Shown in pieces: positions 24,714 through 57,625 of a stretch of DNA of 64,000 nt (positions within the stretch are counted from its first letter, which is position 1; every line of letters starts with the position of its first letter). A program made the position numbers and the translations under genes. The notes under the pieces are model-generated. The model did no database searches and was not told the DNA's origin. It saw only the letters and a program-made list of their open reading frames with translations. Origin of the DNA: Escherichia phage SR02. The DNA lies in the sequence record OQ870566.1. One strand, given 5' to 3'.

Positions 24714-24789
24714 GCGCTCTTAGCTCAATGGATAGAGCAGTAGCCTTCTAAGCTATTGGTTACAGGTTCGAGTCCTGTAGGGCGCACCA
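24714..24789 (+). tRNA. tRNA-Arg (anticodon UCU)
   Basis: 76-nt cloverleaf folded by hand: acceptor GCGCTCT/AGGGCGC, D-stem GCTC/GAGC, anticodon stem GTAGC/GCTAT with loop CTTCTAA, T-arm ACAGG-TTCGAGT-CCTGT, encoded CCA. Confidence 0.85.
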
Positions 24790-36717: not shown

Positions 36718-36951
36718 ATGGAAATTCGTAAGATGATGCTGGATAACGTTGTAACTACTCGACGTATCCCGATGACGAGCACAGGATGTGATAACCTTCG
36801 TGCAATCCAGAAGTGGATGCAAGCTGGTATTGGTCAAGTACTTGAGACACAGGTTGAGGTTCCTTTCCCAACGGTGATCAATAACGTACTTGCTGATTAT
36901 GTAAAAATCAAAGGCATTAAGGTAGAACCTCATGTCAAATCTGGTTCCTAA
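36718..36951 (+). CDS. hypothetical protein (77 aa)
   Basis: ORF in island. Confidence 0.4.
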   Translation: MEIRKMMLDNVVTTRRIPMTSTGCDNLRAIQKWMQAGIGQVLETQVEVPFPTVINNVLADYVKIKGIKVEPHVKSGS

Positions 36952-51326: not shown

Positions 51327-53171
51327 GTGAGCAACCCGGACGCTCTCCCATTTTTGACAGAGATGACTGTCGCTGATATAATCTCTAAGCAAGCAAAGCA
51401 CGGAGTGAGTTTCAACCGAAGAAATGCTCGGTGGTATGTTCACCTCCTTAAAGAGATTATTGTTAATATTGACAGAGAGTTGATTCCTCTCTTACCTAAG
51501 ATGAGATTAGATGGCTCTACTTATATGAAGCCATTTAAGAAGTCTGGAGCTTTACAGAAGTGGCCCCAAGCCTATTGCGATAGGGTTGGCCTTAAGAGAG
51601 AAGACATTGGTGGAGCATTCACCTGTGTCGAATACGTAGACTTTGACCCATCGAAAGATGCACGAGTTAAAGAAGCCCTTATGGACGAGGGTTTTCTTCC
51701 TCCAGAGTTTAATGTATCAAAGAAACCTTGGAATACTTTTGAAATCAAGAAAGATATGAAAAAGTATGGAACATACCAAGCGTGGTATTCAGCTTGGATG
51801 CGAGGTAATGCTAAGCAGAAGCAGACAGCCGAGATGGTTGACGCTGATATTAGGAAGTTCTTAGAAAAGCATTTTAGGTTTAAAACTAAGAACTACATGA
51901 AGGCTTATGTATTTGGTTTAGGTTTAAACCCTAACCGACGTAGACCTATCACTTTTGATGAGATTAAGATAGCACTAGCTACCTCAAACAAGTGGCCTAC
52001 AGCTCCTACAAACCTCGAAGAGACTCTTGAAGAAGGGTTAGGGGGTGAGCTAGGGAGTGTCGGAAGTTTGCTTAAGAGACGCGTTGTAGCGGCTCACAGG
52101 TTAGGTCTTATTAGTGGACTCATAGCAAAGGAGCGCGAAGATGGTAAACTTTCGGCAGAAGCTAACAGCTGTGCTACGCCGACTTTTCGATTCAAACATC
52201 GTATCGTGGTTAATATTCCCTCCCGTGGTTTGTTTGGTCACGAGTGTCGCAGTTTGTTTGAATCTGACTATAACTCAGATGATGATCACTCTCGTCCTTT
52301 CGTTATTACTAACGTTGTTCCTGATGGTTGTTATATACGAAAAGGTACTAACGTAATTTATGAGAAAGGTAAGCCGGGGAAGAAAGACAAACCTGTAGGT
52401 GCTTACAAATATTACATACCCGCTGGTAAAGAAGTATTCTTAGGGTATGATGGTTCTGGATTAGAATTGCGTATGCTCGCACACTACCTCATTAAAGAGT
52501 GTAGGGACATGCTTGCTGAAGCAATAGAAGAGAATAACCCAGCTAAGAAAGCTCTGGCAGAACGTGGTTTAGCTTCTGCTATTATGTATCGTGATATTCT
52601 CCTTGAAGGTGATATCCACTCCCACAACCAGAAACTTGCTGGTCTTCCTACTCGCGACAACGCTAAGACGTTTATCTACGCATTCAACTATGGTGCTGGT
52701 GATGCTAAGCTTGGTTCAATTGTAGGTGGTGGGGCTGACGAAGGTTCAGTGATGCGAGCACGTTTCTTGGCAGAGAACCCATGTATTGCAATCCTCATTG
52801 ATCGTATGACAGAGAAAGCTGCTCAAGGATACTTGATTGGTGTTGATGGTCGTAAGATTACAATGAGACGGGATGCCACTGGTAAGGTTATGGTTCATAA
52901 AGCACTTAACACTCTCCTGCAATGTGCTGGTGCTGTTGTTATGAAATATGCTATGATGTTCCTTAACAAGTGGATTGAGAAAGATAAGGTTCGTTGTGCT
53001 AAGGTAATTGATATGCATGATGAAGGTCAATTCTCAGTGAACCGTAATGATGTACAGAAGCTAAAAGAGCACACCGAGCTTTGTGTTAAGAAGGCTGGTG
53101 AGTACTTGAAGATGGAATGCCCTCTGGCTTCTGATTGTCAGATTGGACTTAACTGGATGCACACACACTAA
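51327..53171 (+). CDS. DNA polymerase, family A polymerase domain (T7 gp5-like), lacking its own exonuclease domain
   Basis: Motif A YDGSGLELRMLAHY, motif B RDNAKTFIYAFNYGAGDAKLG, motif C IDMHDEGQF; close match to recalled T7 DNAP palm and fingers. Confidence 0.9.
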   Translation: MSNPDALPFLTEMTVADIISKQAKHGVSFNRRNARWYVHLLKEIIVNIDRELIPLLPKMRLDGSTYMKPFKKSGALQKWPQAYCDRVGLKREDIGGAFTCVEYVDFDPSKDARVKEALMDEGFLPPEFNVSKKPWNTFEIKKDMKKYGTYQAWYSAWMRGNAKQKQTAEMVDADIRKFLEKHFRFKTKNYMKAYVFGLGLNPNRRRPITFDEIKIALATSNKWPTAPTNLEETLEEGLGGELGSVGSLLKRRVVAAHRLGLISGLIAKEREDGKLSAEANSCATPTFRFKHRIVVNIPSRGLFGHECRSLFESDYNSDDDHSRPFVITNVVPDGCYIRKGTNVIYEKGKPGKKDKPVGAYKYYIPAGKEVFLGYDGSGLELRMLAHYLIKECRDMLAEAIEENNPAKKALAERGLASAIMYRDILLEGDIHSHNQKLAGLPTRDNAKTFIYAFNYGAGDAKLGSIVGGGADEGSVMRARFLAENPCIAILIDRMTEKAAQGYLIGVDGRKITMRRDATGKVMVHKALNTLLQCAGAVVMKYAMMFLNKWIEKDKVRCAKVIDMHDEGQFSVNRNDVQKLKEHTELCVKKAGEYLKMECPLASDCQIGLNWMHTH

Positions 53172-54885: not shown

Positions 54886-55049
54886 AAAAGTATAGTGTAT
54901 GGTTTAACGAAGTAGAAGAAGGTTTTGATGAAGTTGGAGGATGGGTAAATATCCTAAACACTGACGACATAGAAGAGGCCGAGAAGTGCGCCCTAAACTA
55001 CAACTCTGGGTATTATGAAAGAAATTGGGAATATGAGGAAGAAGTATGA
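54882..55049 (+). CDS. small acidic protein (55 aa)
   Basis: Overlap-coupled ORF. Confidence 0.3.
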   Translation: MKKYSVWFNEVEEGFDEVGGWVNILNTDDIEEAEKCALNYNSGYYERNWEYEEEV

Positions 55050-55204
55050 TTTGGATTCACACTTATAAGATTGGAAAGAAAGAGATCACCGTTGTACATC
55101 ACTCTGAGGAAAGTGCAAATGCTTCTCAGGAAGTCTTGAAAGGTGAAGTTAAAACATACGTCGAAGTGAAAGTTAAATCTTGGTCATAATTAATAGGAGT
55201 AAAA

Positions 55205-55420
55205 ATGGAATACATTGATAAATATTCAAGTGAAGATTCAACAGACGCTGAAGTTTTATTTATACTAAAAACAGACTGTCTTGAACATGGTCAGCTTATC
55301 AATTTTATGGAATTGGCAAAACTTAAAGAAGAGATTGATCAACTGTACAGCGATGAGCAATCCAGATTACTTTCCCTGTCCCTGCTAGGTGACTTAACCT
55401 GTGATGGGTGTACAATTTAA
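55205..55420 (+). CDS. hypothetical protein (71 aa)
   Basis: AGGAG RBS. Confidence 0.45.
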   Translation: MEYIDKYSSEDSTDAEVLFILKTDCLEHGQLINFMELAKLKEEIDQLYSDEQSRLLSLSLLGDLTCDGCTI

Positions 55421-55429
55421 GAGGTCTTT

Positions 55430-55933
55430 ATGGCTGAAGTTTATTTTGCAGGAGATGGTCACTTAGGCCATCGCAACATCTGTAGTTTTCGTAAGCAATT
55501 TAAAAACATAGAAGAACATGACAAAGCAATTCTAGCTGCTTTTGACCATGTAACCAAACGTGATAAAATCTTCTTTACTGGTGATTGGGTGTTTGAAAAG
55601 TATGCCCTTGATATTATCGCTGAAGTAAAAGGAGAGAAGCATCTGGTCTTAGGAAACCATGACAGGTTAGAGCTTCTCCCTGATATGATGAAAGTCTTTC
55701 GTAGAATCTCTGGTGATTTTAAATATAAAGAGTTTTGGGTAACTCATATTCCTATTCACACTGATGAGATGAGAGGGAAGTTTAATATTTATGCTCATAC
55801 TCATAACCATGTAATTGATGATTGGAGATATTTCTGTACATCAATGGAGCAAATTAATTATAAAGCTGTTTCTCTGCAAGAGATTAGGAAGGTTTTCGAT
55901 GAAAGAAGAAAAGAACAAGATCTCATTATTTAA
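55430..55933 (+). CDS. metallophosphoesterase (calcineurin-like Ser/Thr phosphatase family)
   Basis: Ordered motifs GDGHLGH, GDWV, GNHD and HTHNH. Confidence 0.75.
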   Translation: MAEVYFAGDGHLGHRNICSFRKQFKNIEEHDKAILAAFDHVTKRDKIFFTGDWVFEKYALDIIAEVKGEKHLVLGNHDRLELLPDMMKVFRRISGDFKYKEFWVTHIPIHTDEMRGKFNIYAHTHNHVIDDWRYFCTSMEQINYKAVSLQEIRKVFDERRKEQDLII

Positions 55934-56342
55934 AGAACCTGTAGTTTATAAAGACTCTATCAGAGATCAATATAATGAGATGTTAAAGAAACAAGCTGAT
56001 TCTAATCTTCGTTATCAGAGGATAGTAGAACAATCTAACTTTAAGGGTTTACTTGAATGGTAACTTATATTCTTTACTTTTTGGCTTTCTTAGGAATAAT
56101 CTTTTTATCTATTATTCTTGAATTTGGTTTAAGTAAGTTAGTTAATTATTTAGGTAGTAAGTAATTAATATTCTTTTAAATAGAGAATCAAAGTCCCTAG
56201 GAGTCCCTACAACCTAAATCAAGGATTCCTTAATTCTCTATTTTTATCTCGCAGGTGGCTCCTGCCCTTCGGTACTTGCAAGGGATTCTGTGAATTGCCC
56301 AATGTACAAGCCTGCAAGAGTTATTCTCTAACTCTACCTTAT

Positions 56343-56351
56343 ATACATTAC
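56343..56351 (-). promoter_or_regulatory. candidate phage-sigma promoter element TAATGTATA, divergent from the one at 56403
   Basis: Exact 9-mer on the minus strand inside an ORF-free AT-rich region. Confidence 0.3.
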
Positions 56352-56402
56352 CATTAGTGAGTATCTACTACCAATAAAATGATACTTATCTTACAAAAGT
56401 TA

Positions 56403-56411
56403 TAATGTATA
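56403..56411 (+). promoter_or_regulatory. candidate phage-sigma promoter element TAATGTATA
   Basis: Exact 9-mer 60 nt upstream of the ORF at 56471. Confidence 0.4.
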
Positions 56412-56470
56412 TTATACATAACCGCTCAAAGAGAGCAACAATCTATCAAATTAAATAAGGAAATTAAAAT

Positions 56471-57217
56471 ATGTCTATGATTCCAACTATCGCAACTTCT
56501 TCCCGTAAATCCAACTACGACATTATCCCTGATGGTGAGTACGAAGCACGTATTGTTCGTGTAGTAGGTTTAGGTGTTCACAATCGTGACCCTTGGGTTG
56601 ACCCGAAGACCAAAGCAGTAACTCCTAAGAATCCAGCTTTCCGTATGGATTTGGCTTTCGAGCTGATTGGTGTTGATGCTACTGGTAAAGATTCCGATGG
56701 TAAGGCATTAGAACCGCGTCCAGCTTGCCAGTTCAAGAGCTATGATGTAAACCCACGAGCTAAGAACTCTGGTATTCTTGATCTTTGCAAGATGATTGAC
56801 CCAAGTATTCAAGCACTGAAAGGTGATCTGTCTTGGTTCAAGGATGTTCTGTTAGGCCAGCCTGTTAACATTCTGGTTAACTCTTACACTAACAAAGCTG
56901 GTGAAGTTAAAAACTCCATCAAGACCATTTCTCCAATCCCAACCAAATATCGTGCAGCAGTTGGTGAAGCTCGTAGTCCTCTGGTATTCTTCGAACCGTA
57001 TGCTGAAACCGATGAGAACGTAGCATCCTATCAACTGATGTTCCCGTTCCAGCGCAACCTGCTTACCCAAGCTAATGACGCTAAGAACATGCCTCTGGCT
57101 GGTCGTGAAATTACTCGTGCTTCTGAAACAGAACAGAAAGAAGCTACTCCTTCAATCCCTACGATTGATAGAGAGCCTACTTCTACTTACGAAGACGACA
57201 ACGATAGCCCATTCTAA
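56471..57217 (+). CDS. putative single-stranded DNA-binding protein (gp2.5-like acidic tail)
   Basis: 248 aa between a promoter motif and a strong terminator; C-terminus YEDDNDSPF is acidic and ends in Phe as in T7 gp2.5; no direct sequence similarity seen. Confidence 0.4.
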   Translation: MSMIPTIATSSRKSNYDIIPDGEYEARIVRVVGLGVHNRDPWVDPKTKAVTPKNPAFRMDLAFELIGVDATGKDSDGKALEPRPACQFKSYDVNPRAKNSGILDLCKMIDPSIQALKGDLSWFKDVLLGQPVNILVNSYTNKAGEVKNSIKTISPIPTKYRAAVGEARSPLVFFEPYAETDENVASYQLMFPFQRNLLTQANDAKNMPLAGREITRASETEQKEATPSIPTIDREPTSTYEDDNDSPF

Positions 57218-57238
57218 TAACTCTCCTTGTTATAGCTT

Positions 57239-57263
57239 AGCCACCTTCGGGTGGCTTTTTTCG
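57239..57263 (+). terminator. strong rho-independent terminator
   Basis: Perfect hairpin AGCCACC-UUCG-GGUGGCU followed by UUUUUU. Confidence 0.8.
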
Positions 57264-57274
57264 TTGGAGATAAC

Positions 57275-57625
57275 ATGCAAAACACGTTAAGTGATAACTT
57301 AGGGTTTATCATTTTCTCAGCTCTTGTGTTCTTTGGTGGTATGAAGTTTAACGAATATCAAACAGACAGCAGTAATCTGGACAAAGAGAAGCACCAGCAA
57401 GAGTTAGAGATTGAAAGAAGTAGGGCAGCTGATGAAGTTGCTCAGAGGGTTCTTACCGGTATATCTAACTGGAAGAAGAACACGGAAACCGTTTATAAAG
57501 AGATGCATTATGAGAAAACTAAACCAGTTTTTTATAATGTCTGCGCTAGTGATGAGTATGTCAGCTTGTTCAACGAGCGACAACAGCAGGCAATCAATGC
57601 CCTTACCAACAAACCTAAAAGCTGA
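57275..57625 (+). CDS. candidate i-spanin (Rz-like): N-terminal TM plus helical periplasmic domain
   Basis: GGAGA RBS; TM helix LGFIIFSALVFFGGM followed by charged helical region. Confidence 0.45.
   Translation: MQNTLSDNLGFIIFSALVFFGGMKFNEYQTDSSNLDKEKHQQELEIERSRAADEVAQRVLTGISNWKKNTETVYKEMHYEKTKPVFYNVCASDEYVSLFNERQQQAINALTNKPKS

Follow-up and report, generated by a model that had tools for sequence, protein, structure and literature searches.

A predicted leftward gp36-type promoter and a conserved candidate non-coding RNA upstream of gene 40 in a phiEco32-like coliphage

The gap upstream of gene 40

The stretch analysed here comprises 64,000 nucleotides of Escherichia phage SR02 (OQ870566.1; hereafter the window), and the element in question lies in the non-coding gap of 306 bp (56165–56470) that precedes gene 40, a homologue of phi32_40 (56471–57217, plus strand). 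Within this gap, two promoter motifs of the family recognized by the phage sigma factor gp36 face away from each other. The rightward motif is the already known promoter P40; the leftward one appears to be undescribed and is, as judged from its sequence, a probable new member of the gp36 family that drives a conserved candidate non-coding RNA.

Over 1.9 kb around the locus, Escherichia phages MN05, NJ01 and SU10, together with about 75 other records from the genus Kuravirus and its sister genera (subfamily Gordonclarkvirinae), share 95% identity with the window. By these matches the window belongs to a Kuravirus, that is, a phiEco32-like coliphage, phiEco32 being the prototype of the Gordonclarkvirinae; its plus strand runs opposite to the orientation in which phiEco32 is usually given. 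The upstream neighbour encodes a calcineurin-like phosphoesterase with a match to Pfam Metallophos, and a 54-amino-acid open reading frame (ORF; homologue of phi32_42) is located between this gene and a second, 35-amino-acid ORF. A first-pass annotation of the DNA, made by a model from the letters alone, had placed the gap between a metallophosphoesterase gene and a putative single-stranded DNA-binding protein (SSB) gene, and this description of the neighbours holds: the former has the Pfam match, and the gene 40 product, although without a family assignment, has an SSB-like acidic tail.

The same annotation had described about 400 bp devoid of ORFs, and this did not hold. Positions 56057–56164 (plus strand) constitute a coding ORF for a hydrophobic 35-residue protein, homologous to phiEco32 gene 41 (phi32_41) and annotated in relatives, which matches PHROG 24970 (E = 4e-23), shows mainly synonymous variation, overlaps the stop of the 54-amino-acid ORF before it and fills the left quarter (approximately 100 bp) of the region that had been called ORF-free. 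Gene 41 is missing in phages Paul, XT32, EK010, TH42 and ECBP2, where the arrangement of the upstream ORFs differs as well. The reported AT-richness, on the other hand, is real: two of the four most AT-rich 100-bp segments in the 64 kb start at 56095 (18% GC) and 56373 (21% GC), and the 400-bp segment with the lowest GC content starts at 55781. The most AT-rich 100-bp stretch is largely gene 41 coding sequence, and the other consists of the P40 promoter and leader.

The inverted repeat noted in the gap is likewise perfect, and at 11 nt it is one base longer than first given, with arms AAATAGAGAAT (56178–56188) and ATTCTCTATTT (56233–56243) around a 44-nt interior. Dinucleotide shuffles of the region contained a perfect 10-nt inverted repeat in 9.9% of cases and an 11-nt repeat in 3.3%; taken alone, the repeat is only modestly unusual in such AT-rich DNA. 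It gains its significance because it is invariant in 25 relatives, the comparison set used throughout, which consists of the 25 distinct versions of the gap collected from GenBank phages, IMG/VR and metagenomes.

Two promoters of the gp36 family

The six promoters of the phiEco32 sigma factor gp36 share a single element, tAATGTAtA, located 6–8 nt upstream of their mapped starts, and are found upstream of genes 6, 13, 26, 40, 58 and 68 (PMC4281155, PMC4331800, PMC8948821). In the gap, TAATGTATA occurs at 56403–56411 on the plus strand and at 56350–56342 on the minus strand, and it equals the published gp36 promoter consensus; the first-pass reading of these elements as divergent promoter motifs was right. 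The expected number of exact copies is about 0.009 for 407 bp and 1.4 for 64 kb; the window has four. The plus-strand copy is the published middle promoter P40, because it is homologous to the entry in the SU10 supplement, 'aagcgtaatgtatactatacataaccgctcaaagagagcaa, between CDS37 and CDS38', with which it also shares downstream sequence. Published listings place P40 upstream of gene 40 in phiEco32, NJ01, ECBP2, KBNP1711, SU10 and 172-1, and the window copy occupies the same place as that of phiEco32, with no material difference. Other homologues of gp36 promoters in the window are P6 (13277, minus strand), P13 (4971, minus strand), P58 (48977, plus strand) and P68 (44646, plus strand), and the minus-strand copy in the gap is the sole exact match to TAATGTATA in the window without a published promoter counterpart.

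The predicted leftward promoter combines this −10-like element (56342–56350, minus strand; the G at −11 is position 56346) with a −35-region block, TGGTAGTAGAT (56363–56373, minus strand), which is the same as that of P68 and provides a G at −37 (56372) and an A at −34 (56369). When aligned on the −11 G, the leftward promoter reads ATTGGTAGTAGATA-CTCACTAATGG-TAATGTATATA and P68 reads ATTGGTAGTAGATA-TGATAACTCTC-AAATGTATATA, so that the two have in common ATTGGTAGTAGATA (−40 to −27), the 12-nt length of the spacer and AATGTATATA. The composite pattern TGGTAGTAGAT-N12-WAATGTATA is found in the 64 kb only at P68 (44623) and at the leftward site, with 0 occurrences expected. A cryo-EM structure of the gp36/gp79 open complex on P68 (2025) revealed contacts to −14A, −13A, −12T, −11G, −37G and −34A, and mutating the contacted bases resulted in loss of activity (PMC12276001). 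All six contact bases are present at the leftward promoter in the same register (AATG at 56349–56346, G at 56372 and A at 56369). Thus, with the P68 block, the spacer length and the −10 element shared, the leftward promoter carries every base shown to be critical on P68. P40 of the window also has G at −37 and A at −34, and P40 of phiEco32 has A at −37 according to a manual count from its sequence.

A corresponding arrangement recurs in related genomes. In IMG/VR the composite pattern was observed exactly twice, on opposite strands, in each of five Gordonclarkvirinae genomes, and five more matches were located in unrelated viral contigs, none of them similar to the window. Across the comparison set, mean pairwise identity of the leftward promoter is 92% in the −35 block and 88% in the −10 block, with 48% in the intervening spacer; the exact −10 element is present in 23 of the 25 relatives, and the −35 block in all. 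Two conserved blocks flanking a free spacer are, on this comparison, the footprint left by a working promoter. On sequence, the leftward site has all the traits tested for the gp36 promoter family with the exception of a position upstream of a gene: no conserved ORF follows it on the minus strand, whereas P40 does precede one, and its direction is opposite to that of every neighbouring gene. In both respects it differs from P68, and its activity is predicted only.

The DNA between the divergent promoters is not of constant length. An insert of approximately 160 bp is found there in ES17 (L007, 512–793) and at the same place in seven other versions; it contains a 47-amino-acid ORF without a PHROG match and is flanked by a TACTACC direct repeat. 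In phages with this insert the leftward −35 block reads TGGTAGTATAT.

The rightward promoter has features of its own. In the window and in MN05 (GTTATAATGTATA) the P40 element (predicted start at 56418) is overlapped by a perfect TATAAT hexamer (56401–56406), and phiEco32 has GCGTAATGTATA, without the hexamer. The −10/+1 region of P40 (56405–56419) is an imperfect palindrome, ATGTATA-T-TATACAT, which could be an operator; in SU7-type phages the palindrome is kept in a shifted register, TGTATA-TAG-TATACA. The gene 40 leader (56418–56470, plus strand) begins with a small hairpin, GCTC-AAAGA-GAGC (56424–56436), followed by an unstructured A/U-rich tract with UUAAA repeats and a ribosome-binding site. 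This layout recalls the translational operator of gene 32 of T4, which encodes the T4 SSB.

A canonical GC-rich intrinsic terminator was called by the terminator scan after gene 40 (57239–57256, plus strand). Situated between P40 and this terminator, gene 40 looks like a one-gene unit, and P40 would drive it rightward as a short unit that ends at 57239. In SU10, WFI101126 and some other relatives a gene for an HNH homing endonuclease lies between gene 40 and the terminator (L001, 3337–3750); the window is without it. The designation of gene 40 as a putative SSB is based on its C-terminal tail, which ends in PF, and on the annotation of one depositor: the protein terminates in DDNDSPF, an acidic tail resembling that of E. 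coli SSB, and the 7-11 homologue ends in FDDDIPF. The protein gave no Pfam match even at E = 10, its PHROG matches were limited to families of unknown function, no PDB relative was found by sequence or by profile, and a single-sequence structure model was useless (pLDDT 36).

Further downstream, past gene 40, the window encodes an Rz-like spanin, a macro-domain protein and the phage sigma factor, and the wider neighbourhood includes the DNA polymerase gene 3.3 kb upstream of the gap as well as an exonuclease gene downstream, on the side of the SSB-like gene. At 51354–51382 (plus strand), within roughly the first 20 codons of the DNA polymerase ORF (51327–53171), is a sigma-70 promoter with an extended −10 that matches the consensus perfectly (TTGACA-17 nt-TATAAT, TG upstream, 12/12 matches). 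A search of the window for tRNA and tmRNA genes returned a tRNA-Arg (TCT) gene at 24714–24789 (plus strand) as its sole find; among the proteins of the related SU10 is one with a class II CCA-adding enzyme domain.

The candidate leftward RNA

The candidate non-coding RNA covers 56170–56335 on the minus strand, with its 5′ end predicted at 56335, which corresponds to about position 36719 (plus strand) of the phiEco32 record NC_010324, and its 3′ end placed at or just past the inverted-repeat hairpin. Neither ATG nor GTG occurs in the minus-strand RNA of the window, and neither strand has a conserved ORF. A minus-strand ORF of 32 amino acids (56219–56317) was rejected, as it is interrupted in phiEco32.

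In 22 of 22 distinct sequences a small hairpin (56317–56335, minus strand) with a purine-rich loop of 5 nt opens exactly at the predicted +1. The sequence of this hairpin varies by lineage and its pairing is kept by two-sided changes, the stems being AGAGUUA/UAACUCU in the window and MN05, AUAGCU/AGCUAU in SU7-type phages, AUAGUU/AACUAU in ECBP2, AUAGA/UCUAU in KBNP1711 and AUAGCU/AGUUAU in phiEco32-type phages. Both partners have changed in two of the pairs, and a further pair alternates between G-C and G-U; the covariation measures were reached by at most 6 of 500 shuffles. The phiEco32-type hairpin folds only as minus-strand RNA (−2.9 vs 0 kcal/mol). The 5′ hairpin is followed by a variable middle domain (56266–56316), which exists as two alternative, unrelated cassettes, type A in the window and phiEco32 and a longer type B in ES17, MN05 and ECBP2, both of which are predicted to fold. 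Next comes a short hairpin, GCAGG-TGGCT-CCTGC (56251–56265), whose sole variable base is in the loop, and finally hairpin A (56178–56243), made up of the inverted repeat and its 44-nt interior. Inside hairpin A are two tandem direct repeats of AGTCCCTA, 10 bp apart (56192–56209). Both copies are shortened together in the Paul/XT32/EK010/TH42/ECBP2 lineage, each losing a C.

The conservation of these parts is uneven. Mean pairwise identity amounts to 96% in hairpin A (15 relatives), 97% in the GC hairpin that adjoins it, 73% in the middle domain and 78% in the hairpin at the predicted start; the corresponding values are 53% for gene 41, 60% for the inter-promoter DNA, 93% for the −10 block of P40 and 80% for the start of gene 40. 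A 95-nt core that includes the inverted repeat is 96–97% identical, compared with 53–80% for the flanking genes. The gap as a whole is a recombination mosaic, in which the types of 5′ hairpin, middle domain and spacer assort independently.

The folding of the region exceeds expectation on both strands. For the single sequence the comparison with shuffles gave z = −3.0 on the minus and −3.5 on the plus strand, and the consensus fold compared with column-shuffled alignments gave z = −5.5 (minus) and −3.5 (plus) for type A and −3.6 on both strands for type B. As minus-strand RNA, hairpin A forms approximately 15 continuous pairs, by way of three G-U pairs, at −23.5 kcal/mol.

The element has a narrow distribution. 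It is absent in the distant relatives 7-11, Privateer, LAh_9 and ECO319P1, which have a gene 40 homologue preceded by a gap of just 47–103 bp, and the element would thus be an innovation of the phiEco32 subgroup. A metagenome scan with a 17-base core pattern yielded mostly chance matches together with seven additional true copies, and a viral scan for the arms of the inverted repeat with any interior returned seven unrelated chance hairpins. No similarity to the element was detected in E. coli genomes, and a 33-base core pattern had no match in 185,579 bacterial and archaeal genomes; a host origin of the element is therefore unlikely.

Competing readings and known systems

In combination, these observations suggest, with a probability of about one half, that the gap is a divergent pair of gp36 promoters, the leftward one of which makes a non-coding RNA of ~165–190 nt ending at the inverted-repeat hairpin. 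The 306-bp gap would then hold back-to-back promoters read by E. coli RNA polymerase carrying gp36. The leftward twin of P68 (−35 block at 56373–56363, −10 at 56350–56342) would initiate at 56335, against all neighbouring genes, and give rise to an RNA composed of the 5′-terminal hairpin, the exchangeable middle domain, the short GC hairpin and the long 3′ hairpin. The long hairpin would define or protect the 3′ end of this RNA and, in conjunction with the T-run on the other strand, may also stop or stabilize rightward transcripts from the upstream operon. The sequence itself shows the motifs, their match to P68, the footprint of conservation, the missing coding capacity and the predicted fold, and from these we infer firing of the promoter, the end point of the RNA and a role for it; what that role would be is a guess.

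Several observations weigh against this interpretation. The leftward site does not appear in the six-promoter lists of 2015 and 2022, and the primary study (Pavlova 2012) may have examined and dismissed it. The −10 element carries substitutions in two metagenomic variants, TAATaTATA (L033) and TAATGTATAc (L068). Outside the 5′ hairpin the helices never vary and hence provide no covariation evidence, and of the single substitutions elsewhere as many favour the minus-strand fold as the plus-strand fold. An attempt to call the strand from these substitutions consequently failed, and the strand assignment is carried mainly by the promoter and the 5′ hairpin. Rfam 15 gave no relevant match at E up to 10 in 55000–57500 or at E up to 5 in four variant loci. 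No target of at least 12 nt was found in the window, and identity or complementarity of 11–13 nt to the rest of the window is at the level of shuffles. Only three U follow hairpin A on the minus strand, which is not a canonical terminator, and the terminator scan called no other minus-strand terminator for several kb leftward. Hairpin A may stop the leftward RNA or protect its 3′ end, which would give a length of ~165 nt (~190 nt for type B).

On the plus strand hairpin A (−18.2 kcal/mol) has a lower stem of 11 bp and an upper stem of 8 bp, separated by an internal loop, and is followed by an invariant TTTTTAT; in the window the T-run directly after the hairpin is TTTTATC (56244–56250, plus strand), a terminator-like tail for rightward transcripts only. 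Compared with an intrinsic terminator the U-run is present, but the stem has two G-C pairs and encloses a 44-nt interior, and the scan gives no call. The hairpin could stop or stabilize rightward operon transcripts from P58, and its use from both sides is possible. An unlikely alternative goes further and holds that the conserved hairpin acts on the plus strand, as an intercistronic element (a weak terminator, or an RNase III-type processing or 3′-stabilizing hairpin modelled on the R sites of T7) that splits the upstream operon from the gene 40 unit, with the leftward promoter giving only antisense transcription or transcriptional interference. The two stems and the T-run fit this view, as does the better-than-shuffled plus-strand fold (z = −3.5 and −3.6), and substitutions that pair only as plus-strand G-U occur in Paul, in XT32/EK010/TH42, in L033/ECBP2 and in TH42. 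The ES17-type ORF upstream of P40, on the plus strand, is also cited in its favour, as it would need read-through across the element. However, the stem is AT-rich, with its 44-nt interior it fails the terminator scan, and the real terminators of this phage are short and GC-rich. Neither a terminator nor a processing hairpin needs 96–97% identity in its loops, and the conserved GC hairpin and the 5′ hairpin, both downstream on the plus strand, are left unexplained, the latter not forming on that strand at all in the phiEco32 type.

It is improbable that the invariant 95-bp block instead serves as a duplex site for a phage or host DNA-binding protein, with AGTCCCTA half-sites one helical turn apart, regulating one or both promoters. 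The two identical 8-nt repeats at a distance of 10 bp, their joint loss of a C in one lineage and the conservation of the sequence itself rather than just of pairing would be accounted for in this manner. However, an operator would not usually be located, as this block is, downstream of the nearer start and 90–160 bp from it, the repeats are found nowhere else in the window, and two 8-mers leave 95 conserved bases and the significant predicted folding unexplained.

Equally improbable is a reading in which the minus-strand motif is no more than a dead copy of P68 in inverted orientation and the region comprises just P40 and a spacer. If the leftward promoter is silent the finding is ordinary, and the omission of the site from the six published promoters as well as the mutated −10 element of two natural variants agree with such a view. 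Still, the two blocks have been kept at 88–92% identity across three genera while the 12-nt spacer has fallen to 48%, and a dead duplicate leaves the compensatory hairpin at the predicted start unexplained.

The first-pass annotation had interpreted the gap as a candidate replication origin activated by adjacent promoters. The divergent-promoter part of that interpretation stands, and the origin part received no positive support: the AT-richness is in part that of coding sequence and of the P40 leader, there are no iterons, and conservation is concentrated in the folded block. The analogy that was drawn with T7 is loose, because transcription here is by the host RNA polymerase with a sigma factor of the phage and not by a T7-type polymerase. 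The form in which an origin could be envisaged, though we consider it improbable, is a transcription-activated one, in which a leftward untranslated RNA enters the most AT-rich DNA and primes or opens it, as at oriF and oriG of T4, the primary origin of T7 or with RNA II of ColE1. Such an origin would explain a promoter with no gene to serve. The 18%-GC stretch (56095–56194) begins approximately 160 nt downstream of the leftward start, the lowest-GC 400-bp segment of the window is close by, the locus lies among replication genes (DNA polymerase, SSB-like protein and exonuclease), and a local reversal of the G-over-C excess makes the leftward RNA the G-richer strand.

The stretch that the promoter faces is, however, mostly gene 41, which is missing in five relatives that retain just ~45 bp of AT-rich spacer, and about 160 nt of folded RNA would intervene. 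Conservation peaks in this folded, GC-richer block and not in an AT-rich unwinding element, and a lasting RNA-DNA hybrid would be disfavoured in such a segment. Synthesis in the leftward direction would meet all middle transcription head-on, and the cumulative GC skew has no turning point here. For an iteron-type (lambda-like) origin at least three repeats and an initiator gene would be expected; the gap has two 8-nt direct repeats and no iteron array, and no initiator gene adjoins it, its neighbours being the phosphoesterase gene, two small ORFs and the SSB-like gene. None of the papers open to searching proposes an origin at this locus. Finally, a type I toxin-antitoxin pair with gene 41 was rejected, as the RNA element is conserved in Paul, XT32, EK010, TH42 and ECBP2, all of which are without the 35-amino-acid ORF.

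phiEco32 is a model for the takeover of the host RNA polymerase by the phage sigma factor gp36 and its co-factor gp79, and the list of gp36 promoters has stood at six, all upstream of genes. If the divergent-pair reading is true, the leftward site would be the seventh and a second natural template for the P68-type −35 contact, and its RNA would be the first non-coding product of the gp36 regulon, better conserved than the neighbouring genes. It would also provide a concrete candidate for replication-origin or RNA-regulator searches in a phage group used in therapy collections. That the RNA represents a new class of structured RNA, dependent on a phage sigma factor and with a dedicated middle-phase job, is a long shot. 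In its boldest version the RNA would prime or license replication at an R-loop-type origin fired by the phage sigma factor on the host polymerase, in which case the first-pass proposal would be right for a different reason; in a less radical version the invariant 95-nt core would sequester a conserved host or phage protein.

Other known systems bear comparison with this locus. The par locus of pAD1 (Fst/RNA II) is a type I toxin-antitoxin system with convergent RNAs, in which a single hairpin is shared by the gene for a small hydrophobic peptide and the small RNA that converges on it, as would be the case here. Unlike in par, five relatives that have no peptide gene conserve the RNA element in full, and the two are not a coupled pair. 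In oriF and oriG of T4 the unwinding element is directly downstream of the promoter and the RNA stays hybridized. The candidate would share with these origins, and with the primary origin of T7, a phage-specific (middle) promoter and a transcript directed into AT-rich DNA; in contrast to oriF and oriG, a folded RNA domain would intervene here, and the AT-rich part is coding sequence whose conservation does not extend to all relatives. The closest layout is that of lambda OOP, a short untranslated RNA of 77 nt made by sigma-70 polymerase from its own promoter against the surrounding operon and ending at a canonical terminator, which acts in antisense control of cII and was once suspected of priming replication. 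Like OOP, the candidate RNA would be opposed to the operon, with its end close to the 3′ end of the gene upstream, and adjoins replication genes. Its length would be about double that of OOP, its structured core is invariant, and the gene it would target, gene 41, is dispensable in relatives.

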